This document shows, piece by piece, positions 1 through 10,666 of a stretch of 64,000 nt of DNA; the stretch's first letter is position 1; the number at the start of each line of letters is the position of its first letter. The position numbers and the translations under genes are program-made. Below the pieces are notes generated by a model. That model saw only the letters and a program-made list of their open reading frames with translations. It was not told where the DNA came from and did no database searches. Location of the stretch: contig DAOSXA010000002.1 in assembly GCA_035380245.1 (NCBI GenBank), positions 268,625 to 332,624 of the forward strand, written 5' to 3'. This DNA is from Candidatus Zixiibacteriota bacterium (GTDB lineage: Bacteria; Zixibacteria; MSB-5A5; GN15; FEB-12).

Positions 1-24
1 ATAAAAAGACCGCCGTTGCAAAGC

Positions 25-1674
25 TCAGGAACGATTGCTGTTTTCTTCGGTCGCAGCCAACAGAGCTAGATTACGTCCGGCCTCCTTAGCCTTAAGTAAG
101 GCCATATCGGCAGCATAGATAAGTTTATCTCGATCATCACCGTTATCAGGATAAACCGCTCCTCCAAGGGAAACCGTACAAGAGATCGTACCGACAGCTT
201 CTACTTCAAATTTCCTGCCGGCAATATCCCGCTGGAGTCGTGTCATGAACTTCTCAGCCATCTCACTGTCGGTCTCCGGCATAATAATACAGAACTCATC
301 GCCGCCATAACGCGCGACGATGTCTATCGAACGGATCGACTGCCGCAGTACATAACCCAACTGCTGCAAGACCTGATCCCCGGCTTGATGTCCGTAGCGG
401 TCATTGATCACTTTTAATTCATCAAGGTCAAAGAGAATCAACGTCAGATGGCGCCGATAACGAGATGCCCGCGCTATTTCTTCATCGAGCCGTTTTAGCA
501 GATAGCGTTTGTTCGCCAAACCGGTCAGGTCATCAGTAAATGACATCTCCTCGATCCGATGGTATGAATCGGCTATTTCAAGAATCTGAGTGGCTTGCTC
601 ACGATGCATCGAGAGTCGCTTGTCGTCCAGCACCTTACGATCTCCCGAGAAAGCCAGAATCCCCTCCTGCTGGTCACTTAGTGAAAATGGCGCAACAAAA
701 TCAAATCCGGAATTCTTGAGCTGATCAAGTAACTTATCAGTCGTTTCATTGACTGGTTTAAAGCGCCCCAGATTGGTCGCTTCATCGTTTGCCAGTGACT
801 TGACAAGGGTTTCAAACGACTCAACCGATGGTGTCTCAATCGGTCCCTTTATTCCGCTCTTGACCAGTTTAAGACCGGTTTGACCGGTCCTGTTTCGATA
901 CAGGTAAACGGCCCGCCCTAATCCTAATTCCTCCCGCACTACCTGCAATATCTTGTGTACTAAGGCATCCGAATCGAGCTGTTTGACCAGGTGGAGTATC
1001 GATGTCTGTCCGTTTACCGGTGTTTCAACCGCTTCCACCTTCTGCTTGAGATCATCGACATTCCTCAGCAGTACCTCGCGCTTGGTTTCAAACCATTTGA
1101 TATGATAAGCCGCCGAAAGACATTGAGCCATCGATGCCAGGTGAGCGAGCCCATTTATATTGATCATTTTATCATTGGCGCGAATGAAATATATTCCATA
1201 CAGGTTTTCATGCCAGTATACAGGAAAAAACCAATCGGCCCCGGCCAGTTCCAGATTTGATCGCATAGTCGACGACAAGTGCTCCGAGAGATCACCAATC
1301 GGTCGCGGTCGAAAACTCAACTTAACCGTTTCGAATATCTGACGGCTGTACGCCATGCGGAAATCACGACGATTTAGTCCGATAAGACCATAAGAGTAGT
1401 TACAAATCAGATTCCCACGCTTCTTACGCATGAATACAATCAACTCACAGCCAAGATCCTCAATCATCATGTTCGACACACGTGAGGCAACTTGGGCAAT
1501 ATCCCCTCCCAGGGCATTGGCGCTGAGCAGGGTGAAGAAATCATCCTCTCTCTTAACCGCGCCATACCTGATCGAAGTACTGACGGAATGCAATCTGAAA
1601 TACAGCCATACCACAACACTGACTGCGACAGTCAACGCTATAACCAATAAACTGTCAATTCCGGTTAAACTCAT
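25..1674 (-). CDS. Membrane-anchored diguanylate cyclase (TM helix + GAF-like sensor + GGDEF)
   Basis: 549-aa ORF. N-terminal hydrophobic helix (LLVIALTVAVSVVVWLYF). C-terminal GGDEF domain with an intact active site (ARYGGDEFCI) and an RxxD I-site (RSID) five residues upstream. Confidence 0.85.
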   Translation of the reverse strand: MSLTGIDSLLVIALTVAVSVVVWLYFRLHSVSTSIRYGAVKREDDFFTLLSANALGGDIAQVASRVSNMMIEDLGCELIVFMRKKRGNLICNYSYGLIGLNRRDFRMAYSRQIFETVKLSFRPRPIGDLSEHLSSTMRSNLELAGADWFFPVYWHENLYGIYFIRANDKMININGLAHLASMAQCLSAAYHIKWFETKREVLLRNVDDLKQKVEAVETPVNGQTSILHLVKQLDSDALVHKILQVVREELGLGRAVYLYRNRTGQTGLKLVKSGIKGPIETPSVESFETLVKSLANDEATNLGRFKPVNETTDKLLDQLKNSGFDFVAPFSLSDQQEGILAFSGDRKVLDDKRLSMHREQATQILEIADSYHRIEEMSFTDDLTGLANKRYLLKRLDEEIARASRYRRHLTLILFDLDELKVINDRYGHQAGDQVLQQLGYVLRQSIRSIDIVARYGGDEFCIIMPETDSEMAEKFMTRLQRDIAGRKFEVEAVGTISCTVSLGGAVYPDNGDDRDKLIYAADMALLKAKEAGRNLALLAATEENSNRS

Positions 1675-1701
1675 TGATTGGATTCCTGCCGGGGCACGGC
1701 C

Positions 1702-1878
1702 TTAACCGCGACTGCCCCAAACATATCTGAAACGGGCTCTCTTGGTCAGCAGTCCCCGTTGCCGCAATATATTGAAAACCTGCCACCAGGACAGGATTTC
1801 ACCACCGTCACTATCATTAATTTCACGTTTGATCTGATTGATCGTTGCAAACGGATCATCGCGAATAATCCGCAGCAT
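1702..1878 (-). CDS. Candidate small (58 aa) basic, winged-helix-like protein, below the ORF-track length cutoff
   Basis: Hand translation of the 314-nt gap gives MLRIIRDDPFATINQIKREINDSDGGEILSWWQVFNILRQRGLLTKRARFRYVWGSRG. ATG is preceded by GGAG-N6. It is co-oriented with both neighbours and ends 27 nt before the GGDEF gene start. No homology search was possible. Confidence 0.4.
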   Translation of the reverse strand: MLRIIRDDPFATINQIKREINDSDGGEILSWWQVFNILRQRGLLTKRARFRYVWGSRG

Positions 1879-1988
1879 AATCGACTCCGGGTCATTGGCG
1901 CCGGTCTCCTTGCCGGTCCGGCGTTCAATCCCGACTGCCGTCTCGCCTGATCCGCCGCTGGAGAACTGGTCGACGACAGTAAACCTGG

Positions 1989-2378
1989 TTACATCCTGGT
2001 CTTTTTTTTTACTTCGGTTCCAGTCAGACTGGAAAAATCCGAGCGAGCCTCGTCTACCGAACTATACGCCTTGAGTACTTTATCGAATTCGAGCAAGTCG
2101 TATATCTCGTATACGTTCGGGATCATGTTCGCCAGCTTGATATCACCGGCATTAGCTCGTACGTCACGTATGTTGGAGATAAAAATACCCCAACCAGCCG
2201 AAGAAATATATTCGACCCCCGCCAGATCAACCACAACCCGATAACGCCCGCGCTTCATAAGGGTATCGAATACCTCTTCCAACTCGCGAGCCGTATTTGT
2301 ATCAATCACGCCATCCACACGGACTTCAGATACTTGTCCCGGTCCGGATTCAGACAGTGAGATTGAGATATTTTCCAT
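1989..2378 (-). CDS. STAS-domain anti-sigma-factor antagonist (SpoIIAA/RsbV-like)
   Basis: 129 aa. Contains the conserved phosphorylatable-serine motif region VEYISSAGWG and a typical STAS C-terminal half (IYDLLEFDKVL). Confidence 0.85.
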   Translation of the reverse strand: MENISISLSESGPGQVSEVRVDGVIDTNTARELEEVFDTLMKRGRYRVVVDLAGVEYISSAGWGIFISNIRDVRANAGDIKLANMIPNVYEIYDLLEFDKVLKAYSSVDEARSDFSSLTGTEVKKKTRM

Positions 2379-2466
2379 TTTATAAGACCGTTTTACCCTT
2401 GCGGTTAGACTTCACTAGAATAAAAACGAGTGAATGGGATTGGGCAAGAAAAAACTAGCGGGACAA

Positions 2467-4494
2467 TCAGATCTCCGGATCGTCCGGTGCCGAACTAATG
2501 GTAGCGGGGCCTTCTGTCTGATCAGCCTCCCCGGTAACGACAGCTCGGGCAATAATAAACGAAATATCATCCGCCGGTCCGGCAAATCCGGTAAAATCAT
2601 CCAGCTCCGCAACCAGCGCTTCACTGAGCGTATGAACCCCCTCACTGCCGTTGGCAACCAACCACTGGCGCAGGAACTTGGCGAGTCGATCCATACCGAA
2701 TTGTCGTCCTTCGCGATCGGCTGCTTCTGTAATGCCATCGGTAAAAATGAAGAACAGATCGCCGTTATGAAGCTCCATACGCCTCTCCTCCAGCGAATCA
2801 CCGAATCCCCCCTCTAGCGTGACCGGCATACCCAACGGCATTCCCGAAGGATTTATAGGCCGAACCTCATGGTCTTCAGCGGCAAAATACAGCATCGGAT
2901 TATGCCCGGCCGAAACCAGACTCAAGGAACGCTCGGCGGAATCATAAACCGCCAGCATAACGGTGATAAACATCCCCCCGGGCATATTCTTCTTCAGATA
3001 ACTGTCAACACGTATCAGTATGTTCCGAGCCGATTCCGCCCGCGCGGCGTGAATCTGAATCACCGTCCGGAGCATAGACATTACCAGTGAAGCCGGGACA
3101 CCTTTTCCGGAGACATCGGCCACGACCAGACAATAACGCCCGGGATCGATCTCGAATACATCATAGAGGTCTCCCCCTACCACTGAAGCCGCACGGTAAA
3201 AGGCATCGAGTTCCAGGCCGAAAATATCCGGCAACTCGTGCGGAAGCAGGGTCTGCTGAATCTGTGAAGCGACCTCGATTTCCTTCGCCAGCTTCTCACG
3301 GGCGACGATGTTCTTGCGGTCCTGGCTCAAACGCGTCATCATTTCGTTCAAGGCACGTGATATTTCGAAAAACTCCTCAGCGCCTCCCAGCGGCAATTCC
3401 GATTCCAGGTCACCGCTCGCAAATCGGCGTACCCGTTGCGTGATCCGCACGATCGGCCGGACGAAATAATTGGACAGGACATAAATCCCCAGCACCCCGA
3501 CAGCCAGCAGTAAAACCGTTACCAGTGAAGTTCGCCAGCGAGCTTCCGAGCGCTGTCTTAAAACCTCTTCCGAGGAATAAACGACATGCGCCTCGCCGAA
3601 CTGGCGCCGCCCCGAAAGAATCGGCCAGCTCAGATAGTTCAATTCACGCCCGTCCTCTTCGAACCGGATCGGTCCCGGACCGGCTTCGGTGGTATCGAGT
3701 CCGGGCGGAAGCACGAACGGTTTGCGTATATTGCGAGCGTCATCGCTGTGCGCACGAACGATTCCGAGCGTGTCGGTCAACACCAGCAGGTCCAACTCCG
3801 GATTGGCTCTGACATACGACACAACCAGCTCATCGAACTCGACATCCGAACGACTGCGGATAAAATAACCGGCGGCCTGATCGGCGACGGTCTTCACCAA
3901 CGACTGAACCGTATTGTCCAGACGATCCAGAATTTGATCCGAAGTCTGGCGATCGATATAGTAAAATGCTCCGCCGATAATCACCGAAACGATAAAGAAG
4001 GTCCAGATCGAGAACTTCATCCTCAACGACCACATACGGCGGATCAGTGGTCGCGTGTCGGCTTTCGTCTCCCCTAACCGTTTGATCATGCGAAGTTCAT
4101 TGCGACTGGCGGACGATATATATTCCACCGAGTCCATGATCTTCTGCATCATGTAAAATCCCAACCCTCCCTTACGTCCCGATTCGACCAGTTTCTCCAG
4201 GTCAATTTTCCCGGTCGAGTTGGGCTGAAAAGAACGCCCGAAATCTATAAAAGAGAAAACCACGAACTTGCGATAGATAACTATTCGCAGGCGCAGCACA
4301 CCCTTTTCGTAAAGATAAGCATGGCGAATGATATTTGTCGCCGCCTCCTCGGTTGCCAGTAGTACCGCCGAAATCTCTTTGCGTGACATGTTGGCGGCAA
4401 CACAAGCCTCACGGACGGTGCGTTGAATGCTGTCGAGATATTTCTCTTCGGCGGAGAATTCGGCGTTGATCTCTTTGACCGGTCGGCGAATCAT
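2467..4494 (-). CDS. Fusion sensor: RsbW-like HATPase kinase domain + 2 TM/periplasmic domain + HAMP + PP2C (SpoIIE-type) phosphatase
   Basis: 675 aa. N-terminal ~140 aa has an N-box (ATEEAATNIIRHAY) and a G-box (RKGGLGFYMM). Two TM helices (IWTFFIVSVIIGGAFYYI; LVTVLLLAVGVLGIYVL) flank a ~140-aa loop. A HAMP domain follows (RPIVRITQRVRRFASGDLE...). The C-terminal PP2C has the motifs GGDLYDV, VADVSGKG and FTDGITE. Confidence 0.8.
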   Translation of the reverse strand: MIRRPVKEINAEFSAEEKYLDSIQRTVREACVAANMSRKEISAVLLATEEAATNIIRHAYLYEKGVLRLRIVIYRKFVVFSFIDFGRSFQPNSTGKIDLEKLVESGRKGGLGFYMMQKIMDSVEYISSASRNELRMIKRLGETKADTRPLIRRMWSLRMKFSIWTFFIVSVIIGGAFYYIDRQTSDQILDRLDNTVQSLVKTVADQAAGYFIRSRSDVEFDELVVSYVRANPELDLLVLTDTLGIVRAHSDDARNIRKPFVLPPGLDTTEAGPGPIRFEEDGRELNYLSWPILSGRRQFGEAHVVYSSEEVLRQRSEARWRTSLVTVLLLAVGVLGIYVLSNYFVRPIVRITQRVRRFASGDLESELPLGGAEEFFEISRALNEMMTRLSQDRKNIVAREKLAKEIEVASQIQQTLLPHELPDIFGLELDAFYRAASVVGGDLYDVFEIDPGRYCLVVADVSGKGVPASLVMSMLRTVIQIHAARAESARNILIRVDSYLKKNMPGGMFITVMLAVYDSAERSLSLVSAGHNPMLYFAAEDHEVRPINPSGMPLGMPVTLEGGFGDSLEERRMELHNGDLFFIFTDGITEAADREGRQFGMDRLAKFLRQWLVANGSEGVHTLSEALVAELDDFTGFAGPADDISFIIARAVVTGEADQTEGPATISSAPDDPEI

Positions 4495-4549
4495 ATGGGG
4501 AAACTACCGCAGGAAAGGCCTTGAAGCCAGAAAAAAAGGGTAAAAGCCG

Positions 4550-6502
4550 TTATTGCTCGGACTCCAGCCGGCTTTTTGCCGTAGCGATATCCTCAGCTAC
4601 GGAGGGATGTGAAGGATCGGCACGCAGGACCTTTTCCCAGGTATCGATGGCTTTCTGGTACTCACCGTTACGATAGTAGTTGAGGCCTTCCTGGTAGAGC
4701 AACTGAATCGCAGCATCGGTTTGCGGGGTGGCACTGTCTTTGCCGGCTTGTCCCGATCGCCATTGAGTAACCAGATTGGCGATACGCTGAACCACCCGGC
4801 GACGTCCTTCGAGAGCAGCCTGATATGTGGAATCTAGTAAAAGCGCTCGGTTGTAGCTCTCAATAGCAGTAACTAACGAATCCATCTGTTCAGCCTGCAC
4901 CGCTGATTTTATTGTCATATCTCGATCCATGTTGCGTCGATTGGCAATCGTCTTACGCAATTCCTGTAGCTTCCAGGAAAGCTCCTGCATCCTTTCGCGA
5001 CTCGCAGGGGCAACATGTATATATGCCTGGATATTCTCATCCATTCGGTCAATAATCTTCTCAGCAGAGGTGTATTGGCGATCACGGAAGATACCGTCGG
5101 CGACACCGTAATATCCCTGAATTTGGTCGCCGGCCATAACCAGGGTTAAATCAAGTTCTTTCCGGAGGGAATCAACAATCACGTCGCTTGTTCCGGCTAA
5201 TGAGTCTTGTTGCTTTTTGAACTCCTCGTTCAATTCACGACGCAATTGAGCCATTTCATCCTGAAAACGATTGTGAATATCTTTCTCAGCAAGTGCTTCC
5301 AGAGAATCAGATGCTGCTTTGGAACCATCCACGGCCTCAGTACCACGTCCCGGTTCAGCAAACAGAACTGCTCGGTCAAACGCTTTCTGCGCTTCCCGAT
5401 ACTCGCCTGTTTTCATATACACCTTGCCGTTAGCAATAAGATCCCGATACTGCTCTCTACGATATTCCGCCAGCACCGAATCAGGATTAGGGCCGGTCTT
5501 CGGAATCAACTTCAAAGGTTGTATCTTGACCGACACCGTATGACGGTAATCATCATAACCCATATCATCCTGATTGCGGGCAACGGCATAATCGACACTC
5601 CACCAATTCGTACCTAAGCCGCCCCCGGCAGTCACTCCCTCGCCGTTATAACCACCACGGAGTTTAACATCATACCCCCGCCAGAGACGATAGTCGGATT
5701 CCACTCCGAGCACCAAACGACCGTCATCTTCAGTATCGTCATCGACCATCAGCAAATCCGCTGAAACCAACAGCCCGAGTCTGGGGGCTACCGAAACGTT
5801 CTTATAGCTGGCGCCTACCGCCAATCGCCAGACCGGACTAGCGATATTATCTTCGGATTCAATATCATCAAACGATATGACATCGCAAGTAGCGAGACCT
5901 ATTGCCCAGTGTTGATCGAACTGATAGCGGGCGCCCAGATCCATCGTTACGCCGTATTCAGTCTCACCATCGATCAAGCGACGATTCAGCTTGATTGTGG
6001 ATCCCAACGCATAACCGGTGGGAAACTCGTGAGCAGCCGATAGTTGTACCTGCAATTTCGAGTCATCATAGACCGATACCTGTCGACCCGATTCGAGGAT
6101 GTTCTTACGATCCTGAACTCGCTGCACTGCCAAAGCCAGCACTGTTCTCGAACCGGGGATAAAACGTCCGGCTATAAAACCACCCTCGGAGTTCGTGTAA
6201 CGAGAGAAATAGGAAAAGTCACCCGAGAACCATACCTTGTCGATACTGCCCAGTCCTGCCGGATTGTAAAAACTCGAGGCCGGGTCACCCGTTATAGAAC
6301 TGAACGCTCCCCCCAGAGCTATCGCCCGAGCTCCGAAACCACCCCGATATGCAGTCTCAACACCGTCTTCACCTGCCCAAACCGACATGCCCAGGCACAG
6401 CACCATAGCCAGCAGAAGGCTCGTCCAGAGACAGCGATTGCGTGTGGTGTTTACTACTCTCATTCTCGTGCGGTTCTGACTCGCTTGGTATTGTTGAAAC
6501 AT
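4550..6502 (-). CDS. Secreted outer-membrane beta-barrel-like domain fused to a coiled-coil/TPR C-terminal half
   Basis: 650 aa. Signal peptide (LLLAMVLCLGMSVWAGE). N-terminal FadL/PorV-like signature (GARAIALGGAFSSITGDPASSFYNPAGLG) and alternating beta-strand pattern to about residue 330. Then a helical region with TPR-like repeats (YMKTGEYREAQKAFDRAV; YYRNGEYQKAIDTWEKVLRADP). Confidence 0.6.
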   Translation of the reverse strand: MFQQYQASQNRTRMRVVNTTRNRCLWTSLLLAMVLCLGMSVWAGEDGVETAYRGGFGARAIALGGAFSSITGDPASSFYNPAGLGSIDKVWFSGDFSYFSRYTNSEGGFIAGRFIPGSRTVLALAVQRVQDRKNILESGRQVSVYDDSKLQVQLSAAHEFPTGYALGSTIKLNRRLIDGETEYGVTMDLGARYQFDQHWAIGLATCDVISFDDIESEDNIASPVWRLAVGASYKNVSVAPRLGLLVSADLLMVDDDTEDDGRLVLGVESDYRLWRGYDVKLRGGYNGEGVTAGGGLGTNWWSVDYAVARNQDDMGYDDYRHTVSVKIQPLKLIPKTGPNPDSVLAEYRREQYRDLIANGKVYMKTGEYREAQKAFDRAVLFAEPGRGTEAVDGSKAASDSLEALAEKDIHNRFQDEMAQLRRELNEEFKKQQDSLAGTSDVIVDSLRKELDLTLVMAGDQIQGYYGVADGIFRDRQYTSAEKIIDRMDENIQAYIHVAPASRERMQELSWKLQELRKTIANRRNMDRDMTIKSAVQAEQMDSLVTAIESYNRALLLDSTYQAALEGRRRVVQRIANLVTQWRSGQAGKDSATPQTDAAIQLLYQEGLNYYRNGEYQKAIDTWEKVLRADPSHPSVAEDIATAKSRLESEQ

Positions 6503-6599
6503 CTATTGTTTCGTTCCCCTGTCGCCACTGATTTGCTGTCAGTGATCTACCCCAAAACAGCATCGAAGGTATTTCGACACTATTCCTTGAACAAATAAA

Positions 6600-6614
6600 G
6601 CAAAGATTGTGCCG
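6600..6614 (-). promoter_or_regulatory. Sigma54 (-24/-12) promoter upstream of the OM beta-barrel/TPR gene
   Basis: Minus-strand sequence is cGGCAC-aatct-TTGCt. GG and GC elements have exact consensus spacing (TGGCAC-N5-TTGCW). It lies about 98 nt upstream of the ATG at 6502, in a 339-nt AT-rich gap. Confidence 0.6.
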
Positions 6615-6841
6615 TTCAATAACTTGAGACCTATACAGCTATCGGAAATCCGTTCTCGATATGTATTACTTTATTGAGTCTGCCTAACCTATACAACAAC
6701 AAAAAGATGACACCACGAACATATTCGTGGACGGCATAAATTTCCCACCAGAATCATTGGGCTAATAGTAGTACGGCTGTAGCCGCCGCACCTATGTGCA
6801 ATTATTGCGCAGACACCTGCAACCCACTCCCCTAAATCGAC

Positions 6842-7747
6842 TTACCTGGCCTTCTCCGCGGCCGTAACGGTATTGAACATCAACATGGCGATTGTCATCT
6901 TCCCCACTCCACCTGGAACGGGCGTAATATAAGATGATTTCGGTGCGCATGCTTCGAAATCAACATCACCGACATTCCGATAGCCTTTCTCTTTAGAGGG
7001 ATCTTCAACGCGATTGATCCCGACATCGACAATCACCACTCCATCCTTGATCATATCCGGCTTGATGAAATTCGCCCGGCCAATGGCAGCAATCAAAATA
7101 TCGGCTCGGCGGGTTACCTGAGGCAAATTGCGAGTACGCGAATGAGCAAAGGTGACGGTTGCATTGGCCATCGGAGCTTTCTGCAACAACATCGCTCCAA
7201 TCGGTTTGCCGACAATGTTTGATCGGCCAACAATGACTACTTCCTTGCCTTCCGGATCGATTCCGTAGTATTCCAGGAGTTTTATAATCCCAAAAGGAGT
7301 GCACGGCAACGGTCCCGGTCGTCCGATCAACATGAGACCGACATTGTGCGGATGAAAACCGTCAACGTCCTTTTCCGGTGCGATCGTTAAAGTAACCCCC
7401 AGTTCATCCAGATGACCGGGTAACGGCGACTGTACCAAAATTCCGTGGATTTTCGGATTGGCATTGAGCTTCTTAACGATTCCGATCAATTCTTCCTGAG
7501 AAATATCAGCCGATCGGGTTATCACCTCGGAATACAAACCGAGCTTGGCGCAGGCTTTAGCCTTGCTGTCGACATAAGTCTGCGAAGCCGGATCATCCCC
7601 AATCAGCACCGCTGCCAGACCGGGTATAATCCCGCGTTCGGCTAATGCGGCAATGCGCGCCTTGAGTGATTTTTTGACCTGCGCGGCAACAACTTTGCCG
7701 TCAATCAACTGATATGTCGTCGTCGCTTGATTCATCCTCTTGTTCAC
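6842..7747 (-). CDS. folD: Bifunctional methylenetetrahydrofolate dehydrogenase/cyclohydrolase
   Basis: 301 aa. Begins with an IDGK..AAQ N-terminus typical of FolD and shows full-length FolD-like sequence (GRSNIVGKP, PVPGGVG). The track start is a GTG overlapping ymdB by 47 nt; the ATG at 7735 is an alternative. Confidence 0.9.
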   Translation of the reverse strand: MNKRMNQATTTYQLIDGKVVAAQVKKSLKARIAALAERGIIPGLAAVLIGDDPASQTYVDSKAKACAKLGLYSEVITRSADISQEELIGIVKKLNANPKIHGILVQSPLPGHLDELGVTLTIAPEKDVDGFHPHNVGLMLIGRPGPLPCTPFGIIKLLEYYGIDPEGKEVVIVGRSNIVGKPIGAMLLQKAPMANATVTFAHSRTRNLPQVTRRADILIAAIGRANFIKPDMIKDGVVIVDVGINRVEDPSKEKGYRNVGDVDFEACAPKSSYITPVPGGVGKMTIAMLMFNTVTAAEKAR

Positions 7748-8567
7748 CCAGAATATCTTGAGGTTTGAAAGTATCGATATCGAAATCGAATCGGAACTGC
7801 TCGATCTTAACGGCCTGGCCGTTGGCTGGATTCACATCGACAAAAACTCCGCTGAGTTTGACATCATCGGTGGCGGTCGTGAATCGTTTCGGCATTCCGG
7901 TGAGCAGACGTCCCAGCGAAGGCCCCTTCTGCATCCCGATCACCGAATCGTGCGGTCCGGTCATACCGGCATCGGTCAGATAGGCGGTGCCCCGTTCGCT
8001 GATTTGGTTGTCGACCGTCTGAACATGCGTATGTGAACCGATCAAGGCCGATACCTTACCGTCCAGGAAATGAAACATCGCCTGTTTTTCAGCGGTGGCT
8101 TCGGCATGGAAATCGACGAAAATGATATTCGCTTTCGAACCGATCTTTAGCAATTCTCGATTGGCCGTTTGAAACGGGCAGTCGATTTCCTTCATGTAAA
8201 TACGCCCCTGGAGGTTAAGAACCCCTACGGCAATGTCGCCGACTTTATCGACCATCGAGCCGACTCCCGGAGCGCCAATTGGAAAATTCGCCGGACGCAA
8301 CAGTTTGGGATTCTTTTCGCTGAGATAGTCGAGAATATCAACCCGGTCCCAGATATGATTGCCCGAAGTCTGCATGTCGATACCGTACGAAAACATTTTG
8401 ATCGACATCTCCGGTGTGATCCCGAATCCCCCGGCAGCGTTTTCGACATTGGCGATGACGTAATCCACACCGTGTTTTTCACGCAACGGCTTGATCATGT
8501 GGGAGCAGGCCTGGCGGCCGACGCGACCGCAGACATCGGCCACGTAAAGAATGCGGAAGTTCGACAT
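7701..8567 (-). CDS. ymdB: YmdB-family metallophosphoesterase (2',3'-cyclic-nucleotide phosphodiesterase-like)
   Basis: 288 aa. N-terminus is ILYVADVCGRVGR, followed by GNHIWD and HAEATAEK motifs typical of the YmdB family. It sits immediately downstream of rny, as in Bacillus. Confidence 0.85.
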   Translation of the reverse strand: MSNFRILYVADVCGRVGRQACSHMIKPLREKHGVDYVIANVENAAGGFGITPEMSIKMFSYGIDMQTSGNHIWDRVDILDYLSEKNPKLLRPANFPIGAPGVGSMVDKVGDIAVGVLNLQGRIYMKEIDCPFQTANRELLKIGSKANIIFVDFHAEATAEKQAMFHFLDGKVSALIGSHTHVQTVDNQISERGTAYLTDAGMTGPHDSVIGMQKGPSLGRLLTGMPKRFTTATDDVKLSGVFVDVNPANGQAVKIEQFRFDFDIDTFKPQDILGEQEDESSDDDISVD

Positions 8568-8648
8568 GAGGCGAACTTTCTAAGGTGAGACGAGTTATTC
8601 GCCCGGCCGAGGGCTCCCACCTGTCACCCTGCAGCCCGGTATTATCAG

Positions 8649-8678
8649 AACCCGGCGTCGTCAAAACAATGCCGGGTT
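8649..8678 (-). other. GC-rich inverted repeat just after the rny stop (possible attenuator or processing hairpin)
   Basis: AACCCGGC-N14-GCCGGGTT, an 8-bp perfect stem 5 nt downstream of the rny stop. No U-tract follows, so it is not a canonical terminator. Confidence 0.3.
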
Positions 8679-8682
8679 GTCA

Positions 8683-10251
8683 TTACTTGGCGTATTCGGT
8701 CGAACGTGTTTCGCGAATCACGGTGACTTTAATCTGTCCCGGATACTGCATTTCCCGCTCGATCTTGGCGGCAATATCGCTGGCGAGAATCTGGCTGGCG
8801 AGATCATCGACCGTCTCGTACTCGACAATCACCCGGATCTCACGACCGGCCTGAATCGCATACGCCTTCGACACTCCCTTGAAACTATCAGCCAGCTCTT
8901 CGAGCTGTTGCAAACGTTTGATGTAAGCTTCCAGCGGTTCGCGCCGCGCTCCGGGACGAGCCCCGGAGATGGCATCGGCCGCCTGAACCAGCACCGGGTA
9001 AGGACCGATCATCGGTACATCGCCGTGGTGTGATTCGATGGCGTTAATCACGTAATCGTTCTCTTTATAACGGCGCATGAAATCAGCGCCGATCTGAGTA
9101 TGTGTCCCCTCGGTTTCCCGGTCGATAGCCTTGCCGATATCGTGCAACAGACCCGATCGCTTGGCCAGCATATCGTCCAGTTCCAATTCGGCCGCCATCA
9201 AACCACAGAGCATGGCGACTTCCTTGGAGTGCGCCAGGACATTCTGCCCGTAAGATGTACGGAAATTCAGCTTACCCAGATTCTTTATCACTTCAGGATG
9301 GAGTCCGTGCACGCCCAATTCGAAACAGGCCTGCTCGCCTGCCTCACGAACGATTACCTCCATCTCTTTCTCGGCTTTTTCTACCACCTCTTCGATGCGT
9401 GTCGGATGGATACGACCATCGGTAATGAGCTTTTCCAGAGCCATACGTGCAATTTCACGGCGAACCGGATCGTAACCGGACAGAATCACCGCTTCGGGAG
9501 TATCGTCGACGATCACATCGATCCCGGTAGCGGTTTCGAAAGAGCGGATATTGCGTCCCTCACGGCCGATAATACGCCCCTTCATTTCATCATTGGGGAG
9601 ATTCACTACCGATACCGTAGTCTCCACGGTATGATCGGCAGCGCAACGATAAATAGCCGACAGAATGATTTCCTTGGCTTCTTTGTCGGCGTCAGCCTCA
9701 GCCTTTTCCTTGATTTCTTTTATATGTGCAGCCGCTTCGACCTTAGCCTGCGAGATCATATTATCCATGAGTTGCTTTTTGGCTTCTTCGGGAGTCATCT
9801 GAGCTATCTTCTGAAGTTTCTCGTTTTGACTCTCGATTATCTCATCCAACTCCGCCTCGCGGAAGGCTATCCCTTTTTCACGCTGATTGAGAGATTTTTC
9901 ACGTCCCGAAATTTCTTTCTCACGCACCTGAAGCATATCCAGCTTCTTAACTAACGAAGAGCTTTTCTCTTCCAGATCTTTCTGCAGCGCTTCGAGATTA
10001 TGTCGTTTGGTCTCCGCTTCCCGATCAAAATCGTTTTTCAGCTTCAGCCACTCTTCACGGGCTTCCAGAGCGGCTTCTTTTGTTTTTATCCGGGCCTGGT
10101 TTTCCGCCTCGGCAATGACGGCACGGGCTTTCTCGCGCGCATCTTCGATTTCGGCTCGATTGGATTTCTGGACCATGGAGCGAGTAACGAAGAAAGCGAC
10201 CAGCGCCACCACAACGGCCACGGCAGCAACCAGAATTACATTGGTTAACAT
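8683..10251 (-). CDS. rny: Ribonuclease Y
   Basis: 522 aa. N-terminal TM helix, long coiled coil, KH domain ([15 protein letters not shown]) and HD domain (LLHDIGKA...ESHHGD). Confidence 0.95.
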
Positions 10252-10363: not shown

Positions 10364-10666
10364 TCATTCAGAGGCCAGCGCCTTATTGAGACGTGACAAT
10401 ATGTCGTCGGCACTGCCGTCAATCTCTGTCCCGAACTCGACTTGACGATCCTGAAGTTCCAGGAGTTCGGAGGCAATTGACATTGCGGCCAGAATAGCCA
10501 CTCGGTCACGGCTCTTCACCCGTGATTGAGAGGCTAATTCTTTCATCCTCTTATCAACGTAGTCGGCGACCCTTGACATGTATGCTGGATCCAAAGCACC
10601 CGTAATAGGGTATTCTTCACCAAATATATGAACCACTACTTTATTCTCGTCACAAGGATCAGACAT
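10364..10666 (-). CDS. zapA: Cell division protein ZapA
   Basis: 100 aa. Pattern VHIFGEEYPITG...YVDKRMKEL...VAILAAMSIASELLE matches ZapA/YshA. It is positioned near pheT, as in Bacillus. Confidence 0.8.
   Translation of the reverse strand: MSDPCDENKVVVHIFGEEYPITGALDPAYMSRVADYVDKRMKELASQSRVKSRDRVAILAAMSIASELLELQDRQVEFGTEIDGSADDILSRLNKALASE

Follow-up and report, generated by a model that had tools for sequence, protein, structure and literature searches.

INTRODUCTION

STAS-based partner switching controls stress responses, biofilm formation, and cyclic di-GMP in many bacteria. Here we analyze a stretch of 64,000 nucleotides (nt) from Candidatus Zixiibacteriota bacterium (contig DAOSXA010000002.1), hereafter the window, to which all coordinates refer, and within it a gene block in which a single membrane protein carries both an RsbW-like kinase and a PP2C phosphatase and is followed by a STAS gene and a GGDEF diguanylate cyclase gene. 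Slippage at a run of nine adenines near the end of the STAS gene appears to yield two products, the STAS protein itself and a fusion of STAS to a conserved helix-turn-helix (HTH)-like domain, CT, encoded in the −1 frame. We put at roughly 60% the probability that the whole constitutes a conserved envelope-to-biofilm signaling block of Zixibacteria, in which the membrane kinase/phosphatase would act on slippage-made STAS forms with a cyclase and polysaccharide output.

Several described systems resemble this block in part. SypE of Vibrio fischeri has an N-terminal RsbW-like kinase, a C-terminal PP2C phosphatase, and a regulatory module between them (PMC10120452), and it has a single-domain STAS partner, SypA, and a polysaccharide locus (PMC10120452, PMC8256260), features that recur here, the polysaccharide locus in relatives of the window. 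The regulatory module of SypE, however, is a cytoplasmic receiver, whereas here an envelope sensor of the form transmembrane segment (TM)-Cache-TM-HAMP takes its place; the STAS gene, unlike that of SypA, has a slippery run within it and an additional C-terminal domain, and a GGDEF gene lies adjacent. An initial annotation of this DNA, made from its letters and a list of its open reading frames (ORFs), had proposed a SypE-like switch governed by an envelope sensor. The likeness holds for domain order, intact motifs, the STAS gene next door, and the polysaccharide locus, but Pfam found no REC match in the 675-amino-acid (aa) protein, which, lacking that domain, falls outside the SypE family.

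In the SiaABCD system of Pseudomonas aeruginosa, SiaA has two membrane spans, a HAMP domain, and a PP2C domain, and a kinase opposes it on a STAS-fold protein that controls an adjacent diguanylate cyclase (PMC7647112, PMC8457831). The C-terminal two-thirds of our enzyme resemble SiaA, whose PP2C domain ranks first for the enzyme's C-terminal half in both NCBIfam and fold comparisons. The two systems differ in that the kinase SiaB is a separate protein and is fused here, in that the phospho-residue of SiaC is a threonine (T68) rather than the canonical STAS serine found here, and in the cyclase, which compared with SiaD is a protein of 549 aa with a membrane anchor. All Sia models of NCBIfam fall far below their cut-offs (SiaA, 79.9 versus 700 bits; SiaD, 162 versus 290), and the system is for this reason not placed in the Sia families. 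HsbR, CrsR of Shewanella, and Rv1364c of Mycobacterium tuberculosis also fuse a phosphatase to an RsbW-like kinase and act on a STAS partner, which for CrsR is CrsA, and Rv1364c, a solved PP2C-kinase fusion, is among the best structural matches. These proteins are soluble with the order sensor-PP2C-kinase; our enzyme instead begins with the kinase and has a transmembrane sensor. In the HsbR-HsbA-HsbD system of P. aeruginosa, HsbA also binds a diguanylate cyclase (PMC6482189). Because the GGDEF gene follows directly, SiaABCD and HsbR/HsbA/HsbD are the closer functional parallels.

The nearest precedents for the run are dnaX of Thermus thermophilus (A9) and mxiE of Shigella flexneri, in which a homopolymer of at least nine bases lies within a gene that has two products and, close by, a stop in the alternative frame; for mxiE, it is the longer product that depends on the slip (PMC1088944, PMC5009743). 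The present case differs in that the run is phylum-wide with a varying frame relation (−1, 0, +1), and slippage at it is predicted from sequence. The gene family would be a new one among recoding cases, as a 2016 review of recoding lists no STAS or anti-sigma case (PMC5009743).

RESULTS

The STAS gene and the conserved frame beyond its A run

The features on which the argument turns lie on the minus strand of the window:

1989..2378, minus strand: STAS ORF in the zero frame, 129 aa, of the anti-sigma-antagonist type (PF01740, TIGR00377)
2199..2201, minus strand: predicted phospho-serine codon, S60 of STAS (SSAGWG motif)
2002..2010, minus strand: A9 run (T9 on the plus strand) in the 3′ end of STAS (sequence)
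1702..2001, minus strand: CT domain, 99 codons at 1705..2001 plus a stop at 1702..1704 (−1 frame relative to STAS; tblastx)

The run stands in the context GT-A AAA AAA AAG-ACC, with an A_AAA_AAG heptamer in the zero frame, and the zero-frame stop follows 3 codons past it. No other homopolymer in the window reaches eight bases. Of the 47 runs of at least nine in 644,636 nt of related loci, all but one lie at the STAS-CT junction; lysine codons in neighboring genes are 74 AAA versus 86 AAG, and the run is kept even though synonymous codons could break it. We compared the window with 58 related Zixibacteria loci and, separately, with distant relatives among 80 metagenome loci (L063-L066 included). 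All 47 Zixibacteria loci with both STAS and CT have an uninterrupted A run (A9 in 12, A10 in 34, A11 in 1), and A9 stands in each of three independent assemblies from the window's own species.

The frame that follows the run is conserved as protein. Among the 47 other loci that bear STAS, tblastx detects the CT frame in 46 (E values between 1e-5 and 3e-23, with all but two at 5e-12 or lower), and in the window it is open back to 2061, across the 3′ end of STAS. Relative to STAS, CT lies in the −1 frame at 37 of the 47 loci, in the +1 frame at 4, and in frame at 6; the in-frame loci encode proteins of 223 to 227 aa yet retain A10. Every one of the 41 split loci has a zero-frame stop 1 to 9 codons past the run, and since the positions and codons of these stops differ, the stop itself is suggested to be maintained. 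At 30 of the split loci there is no ATG, GTG, or TTG in the CT frame upstream of the LTVxD motif, at 11 there is no ATG anywhere in the frame, and at four the CT frame opens, after a stop, only 2 nt into the run. Virtual fusions with one A more or one A less in the run are stop-free and 219 to 230 aa long with a conserved KKK-x4-LTVxD junction (one fusion of 271 aa, an outlier, was left out of the alignment). A downstream frame conserved as protein, the lack of an independent start at 30 loci, and a near zero-frame stop are what is found in the slippage family, and slippage at the run appears to yield two proteins, STAS by itself and STAS fused to the HTH-like domain.

We rejected the reading that CT is a small gene of its own, a 58-aa ORF read from an internal ATG (1702..1878, minus strand), given that conservation reaches 5′ of the available starts at 30 of the 41 split loci, while at 11 the frame lacks an ATG altogether. 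The public annotation of the region holds just such a 58-aa product, "hypothetical protein PLF13_06310" (P0276). A riboswitch or small RNA in the 314-nt gap between STAS and GGDEF was likewise discarded: Rfam (E up to 1, positions 1..7000) gave no match, and the stretch is protein-coding. The initial annotation had described the 129-aa ORF, its 88-nt distance from the enzyme gene, and its STAS character correctly, but the gene is not a plain one, and the 314 nt downstream are not intergenic.

In the distant relatives L064 and L065, STAS and CT are read in one frame as a single gene (216 and 232 aa, respectively), which shares the YISSAGWGIFIS motif and has no A run. Because these genes are in frame without a run, the two-domain STAS-CT protein would be the ancestral form and the split a feature of Zixibacteria. 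In one metagenome-assembled genome, WJKG01 (candidate division GN15 Bin_210), two enzyme-STAS-CT blocks occur (L012 and L027), and CT is in the −1 frame in one of them (A10) but in the +1 frame in the other (A9); these copies may be paralogues or strain variants.

The STAS ORF matches PF01740 (E 1.3e-15, 57.4 bits; cut-off, 22.6) and TIGR00377 (62.2 bits; cut-off, 53.45), and no SiaC-type family is among its Pfam and NCBIfam matches. Of the 58 Zixibacteria loci, 48 have a STAS match after the enzyme gene, as do L064 and L065, and other relatives carry STAS domains as part of the enzyme. Orthologues are 58 to 82% identical, with Y57, S59-S60-A-G-W-G, and I67 invariant across 48 sequences. Aligning by motif, we equate S60 with the serine that is phosphorylated in SpoIIAA (S58) and RsbV. 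The STAS protein is the predicted substrate of the kinase/phosphatase. At three loci (L008, L040, and L058) the enzyme and the upstream outer-membrane genes are kept, and unrelated genes replace STAS-CT and GGDEF; at L019 a weak STAS-like match of merely 11 residues (E 2.1, 10633-10665) lies ~2.6 kb downstream, where the contig ends.

The residues of CT that are invariant or nearly so are DPF..I, WW.VF..L, LL, and RF. Profile matches are weak (HTH_Tnp_Tc3_2, E 0.003; HTH_21, E 0.002; HTH_24, E 0.011), and a hidden Markov model of CT matches, weakly but consistently, a segment just after HTH_28 in long relatives of the enzyme. The AlphaFold2 model, built on an alignment of 6 sequences, places three helices with a predicted local distance difference test (pLDDT) score of ~80 after a disordered linker of 35 residues (mean pLDDT, 63). 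A Foldseek search with this model found nothing significant (best E, 0.34), and the top of its list is mostly winged-helix and HTH DNA-binding domains at E 0.3 to 4. On the strength of the weak HTH profiles, the three-helix model, and the winged-helix-dominated list, an HTH-like fold for CT is likely, and DNA binding is putative. Protein searches in a database of 5.8 billion clusters returned a single short ORF with CT alone and, with a profile of 26 sequences, six ORFs of 55 to 78 aa, all hypothetical; CT is a conserved domain that gene callers almost never annotate.

Possible mechanisms of the frame change

The two products could arise at the RNA polymerase or at the ribosome, and we regard transcriptional slippage as probably the mechanism. 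Nine or more is the run length for efficient slippage by bacterial RNA polymerase, as in T. thermophilus dnaX (PMC1088944, PMC5009743). This route is favored because the run is always at least nine long, its phase varies, conserved flanking RNA structure is absent, and loci with CT in frame or in the +1 frame keep the run. No conserved RNA structure was found downstream or upstream of the run (mean z, −0.13 and −0.05).

A programmed −1 ribosomal frameshift on A_AAA_AAG or A_AAA_AAA, as in Escherichia coli dnaX, would give the same two products, and it is a competitor to be taken seriously, though we hold it to be the less likely route. The heptamer A_AAA_AAG, which is the shift site of E. coli dnaX (PMC5009743), stands exactly in the zero frame in the window, the run is followed by G in most loci, and 37 of the 41 split loci require a −1 shift. 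Yet AAG is in phase at merely 16 of the 37 loci with CT in the −1 frame, the run never falls below nine although a ribosome would need seven, and the downstream RNA has no conserved structure; the retention of the run at +1 and in-frame loci fits a mechanism that gives both insertions and deletions.

A third possibility is that neither RNA polymerase nor ribosome slips and that the run is a phase-variation tract in the DNA, switching between a fused "ON" and a truncated "OFF" form, or a homopolymer assembly error. Run length (A9, A10, or A11) and frame (−1, 0, or +1) do vary among species, long A/T runs are hypermutable in replication (PMC1088944), and the contig names of some assemblies suggest long reads, which miscount homopolymers. 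Most contig names, however, are MEGAHIT- or SPAdes-style, and the in-frame A10 runs of L043-L047, from one set of assemblies, indicate that such runs can assemble correctly. An exact look-up of 10 virtual in-frame fusions in ~15 billion predicted proteins found none, and the ever-present zero-frame stop within nine codons of the run, varied in position and codon, also speaks against this explanation. Given the three A9 assemblies of the window's species, the missing in-frame fusion protein, and the −1 relation shared by 37 of 47 loci across many studies, phase variation or assembly error is unlikely, and we assign it a small share of belief.

The fused enzyme

The protein that is predicted to act on STAS is encoded immediately upstream, and its parts are as follows:

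2467..4494, minus strand: fused kinase/transmembrane sensor/phosphatase gene, 675 aa (ORF list, profiles)
4081..4458, minus strand: RsbW/SpoIIAB-type GHKL serine-kinase domain, aa 13-138 (HATPase_c_2)
3952..4020, minus strand: first transmembrane segment (TM1), aa 159-181 (Kyte-Doolittle)
3538..3951, minus strand: periplasmic sensor domain, single-Cache/PDC-like, aa 182-319 (sCache_3_2, AlphaFold2)
3457..3537, minus strand: second transmembrane segment (TM2), aa 320-346 (Kyte-Doolittle)
3325..3477, minus strand: HAMP domain, aa 340-390 (PF00672)
3217..3324, minus strand: helical linker between HAMP and PP2C, aa 391-426 (AlphaFold2)
2542..3216, minus strand: PP2C phosphatase domain of the SpoIIE/RsbU type, aa 427-651 (PF07228)

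A database entry from candidate division Zixibacteria matches the protein at 100% identity; NCBI lists it as "SpoIIE family protein phosphatase," and the automatic JGI name, [quoted passage not shown] covers both activities. HATPase_c_2 matches aa 13-138 over model positions 1 to 127 of 127 (E 1.2e-21, 77.5 bits; cut-off, 27.4), and among solved structures the domain is related to RsbW (6m36, E 1.4e-7) and SpoIIAB (1th8, E 5e-4). It contains the stretches NIIRHAY and GGLGFYMM, an N box with E49/E50/N54, a G1 motif (D84-F-G86), and a G2 motif (G109-G-L-G112). The SpoIIE profile PF07228 matches aa 450-650 (E 1.7e-44, 152.5 bits; cut-off, 25), with metal-binding aspartates at D442, D460, D586, and D643. 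All three kinase motifs and the four aspartates are invariant in 48 locus-derived and 38 database orthologues. Mean conservation is highest for HAMP (0.81), followed by the kinase (0.77), the linker (0.77), the PP2C domain (0.57), and the periplasmic domain (0.50). Both enzyme domains keep their full catalytic motif sets under strong conservation and would be active as far as such motifs predict.

Hydropathy gives exactly two membrane segments, at aa 159-181 and 320-346, around a loop of 138 aa. TM1 (mean Kyte-Doolittle value over 19 aa, 1.8) has 4 K/R versus 2 D/E in its N-terminal flank, and TM2 (mean, 2.4) is followed by VRPIVRITQRVRR (5 K/R versus 1 D/E). Because K/R are enriched N-terminal of TM1 and C-terminal of TM2, the data fit an N-in, loop-out, C-in topology in which kinase and phosphatase are both predicted to be cytoplasmic. 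The loop domain itself scores under the cut-off of sCache_3_2 (E 5e-4, 20.6 bits; cut-off, 28.4), relatives' loop domains exceed it (34 to 45 bits, E 2e-11 to 3e-8), and PF17203 is precomputed in about half of the orthologues. The HAMP domain is a clear match to PF00672 (E 1.4e-10).

In the AlphaFold2 model of the protein (mean pLDDT, 78.5), the N-terminal domain is ordered as in GHKL proteins, TM1 continues into a long periplasmic helix, another helix, and then five strands (pLDDT >90), and TM2 leads through HAMP into a continuous helix of 47 residues (aa 370-416) and the PP2C fold. The modeled PP2C domain has SiaA-PP2C (6k4e) as its top Foldseek match (E 6e-14; TM-score, 0.82). In other systems a coiled-coil linker governs dimers of PPM phosphatases, and signaling from HAMP to the PPM domain passes via a helical linker (PMC12143880). 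The domain order that the initial annotation had drawn, an N-terminal HATPase_c_2 domain, two helices bracketing an extracytoplasmic loop of ~140 aa, HAMP, coiled coil, and SpoIIE-type phosphatase, with both enzymes in the cytoplasm, is confirmed by these profiles and models and, for the location of the two enzymes, agrees with the topology predicted from charge. The PP2C motif DVSGKG has an invariant lysine, K464 (3103..3105, minus strand), at a position where SiaA (6k4e) and Rv1364c (3ke6) have histidine (D-x-x-G-H-G).

The GHKL domain might not oppose the phosphatase on the STAS serine at all, acting instead as a binding or regulatory module or as a kinase for another substrate, in which case the protein would be a SiaA-like sensor phosphatase. 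The NCBI name mentions the phosphatase only, and the ATP-lid region (aa 87-120) is modeled at pLDDT <50. Against this stand the invariance of all ATP-binding and catalytic motifs, the greater conservation of the kinase than of the PP2C domain, and the gene content: the genes of the block, as scanned here, include no RsbW-like kinase apart from the fused one, whereas relatives with the unfused layout have one beside PP2C and STAS. We consider this explanation quite improbable.

Distribution of the fused architecture

At least 120 clusters at 90% identity in Zixibacteria have the full architecture, at 58 to 93% identity. A distant search run with no word index against 1.84 billion cluster representatives (50% identity) found, among the best 150 that were examined, kinase and PP2C together in 98 and, in ~90, an N-terminal kinase and membrane segments at matching positions (26 to 42% identity). 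The DNA of the metagenome relatives ranges from 28 to 72% GC, and the organismal spread of the distant relatives was judged only from this range. The architecture is widespread, conserved across Zixibacteria, and not rare, which answers the question of rarity for which the initial annotation had proposed a database search. A literature search found no paper characterizing the architecture. In the metagenome scan for distant relatives, which used generic PP2C patterns, the fused kinase-PP2C core occurred in one ORF at 4 of the 80 loci (L063-L066), and some relatives (L090, L098, L118, L134, L137) have the classical unfused layout, with a separate kinase gene adjoining the PP2C and STAS genes.

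Many relatives extend C-terminally, with an HTH domain (HTH_28, HTH_23, or HTH_29) directly after PP2C and then three STAS domains or TPR repeats. The extended relatives P0126, P0129, P0134, P0150, P0135, P0138, P0153, and P0180 reach up to 2253 aa, and, as their domain content predicts, are a whole partner-switch module within one membrane protein. What looked like a missing kinase domain in L057 proved to be a 100-N assembly gap. The enzyme gene of L065 (43% GC) contains a T10 run at 6504-6513, apparently in frame as Phe-Phe-Phe near TM1, according to its ORF translation only.

Gene neighborhood

Two further genes complete the block:

4550..6502, minus strand: outer-membrane barrel gene, PorV/PorQ-like, 650 aa, with a coiled-coil/TPR C terminus (NCBIfam, Pfam)
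25..1674, minus strand: GGDEF diguanylate cyclase gene, membrane-anchored, 549 aa (PF00990)

The order PorV-like/TPR outer-membrane protein, enzyme, STAS, GGDEF is conserved across the 58 Zixibacteria loci. The PorV-like gene (NCBIfam PorV_fam, E 6e-11, 42.5 bits against a cut-off of 90; Pfam TPR_2, E 1.5e-13) ends 55 nt from the enzyme gene and stands directly upstream of it in 53 of the 58, the others being truncated where a contig ends or interrupted by a gap in the assembly. Its product is 21 to 28% identical across full-length matches despite this synteny, and it could be an envelope partner of the periplasmic Cache-like domain. On the other side, the enzyme and STAS genes are separated by 88 nt and the CT stop codon lies 27 nt from the GGDEF start. 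The cyclase matches PF00990 (E 7e-47), retains its GGDEF motif and an intact RxxD I-site (RSIDIVARYGGDEF), and has an N-terminal hydrophobic helix. GGDEF follows STAS/CT in 45 of the 48 STAS-bearing loci, and at least two of the other three stop at a contig edge past STAS.

In 37 loci, Wza-like (Poly_export/SLBB) and Wzz-like genes come after GGDEF (e.g., L060:4998-6177 and L001:10810-13332). The window's own species supplies one of these contigs, and the window itself, which ends 24 nt past the GGDEF gene, stops before such genes. In the relatives, the regulatory block heads a predicted polysaccharide-export locus.

This neighborhood also bears on whether the protein is a classical, membrane-anchored partner switch, in which the RsbW-like domain would serve mainly as an anti-sigma factor that keeps a sigma factor at the membrane, STAS dephosphorylated by the signal-activated PP2C domain would displace the sigma factor, and the kinase would just reset the switch. 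The best NCBIfam matches of the N-terminal domain are indeed the anti-sigma-B factor RsbW and the anti-sigma-F factor SpoIIAB, RsbW is its closest solved structure, and the kinase domain of HsbR also binds RpoS (PMC6482189). The score against the RsbW equivalog, however, is far below its cut-off (54.9 versus 145 bits), no sigma-factor gene was found among the ORFs of 1..9000 and no sigma-like family in Pfam and NCBIfam scans of the four block genes, and the conserved neighbors are instead the outer-membrane protein, STAS-CT, GGDEF, and the polysaccharide-export genes. A sigma-factor switch of this kind strikes us as improbable.

Promoter and terminator scans gave counts no higher than shuffled controls and were uninformative on operon structure. 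Farther along the window, a mechanical listing of ORFs shows a FolD-like ORF (6842..7747, GTG start) overlapping the end of a YmdB-like ORF (7701..8567) by 47 nt; the true FolD start is probably further downstream.

DISCUSSION

If the block works as we envisage, a periplasmic or envelope cue would act on the Cache-like domain of the enzyme, and the signal would pass via HAMP and the helical linker to set the activity of the PP2C dimer. The kinase would oppose the phosphatase, so that the phosphorylation state of Ser60 of STAS would report the cue through the balance of the two. Ordinary decoding would give the 129-aa STAS protein, and a slip into the −1 frame, in the favored case the addition of one A by RNA polymerase, would add the 99-residue HTH-like domain for a total of ~225 aa. 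Depending on their phosphorylation state, the STAS forms would then bind partners: the adjacent GGDEF cyclase and, via CT, DNA or another partner. This output as a whole is the least certain step. Since polysaccharide-export genes follow in relatives, what the block controls is probably the production of exopolysaccharide or biofilm.

Several considerations weigh against this reading, which is derived from sequence. Any A run of nine or more holds an in-phase −1 slippery heptamer, which leaves room for the ribosomal route; the four loci with CT in the +1 frame may be sequencing noise, and consensus assemblies mask minority run lengths. The HTH call for CT is weak, with Pfam matches at E 0.002 to 0.01 that are below cut-offs, a best Foldseek E of 0.34, and a six-sequence model. 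The GGDEF link is limited to Zixibacteria, L064 and L065 having STAS-CT without an adjacent GGDEF gene, and gene order inherited within one phylum can mimic linkage, folD and ymdB being syntenic in some loci as well.

For the narrower evolutionary and regulatory proposal, we lean slightly toward a history in which an ancestral STAS+HTH-like regulator was split by an A9-A11 run across much of Zixibacteria, with RNA polymerase slippage fixing the ratio of STAS to fusion and both forms serving as substrates of one membrane kinase/phosphatase. If true, this history would give partner-switching pathways their first described recoding event and would be a rare cellular case of programmed slippage outside mobile elements. 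With an envelope sensor placed between an opposing kinase and phosphatase, the enzyme would be a small and tractable setting in which to study how a single transmembrane signal tips the balance of opposed activities. The link to a cyclase and to polysaccharide-export genes, finally, suggests how an uncultured phylum may regulate biofilm formation.

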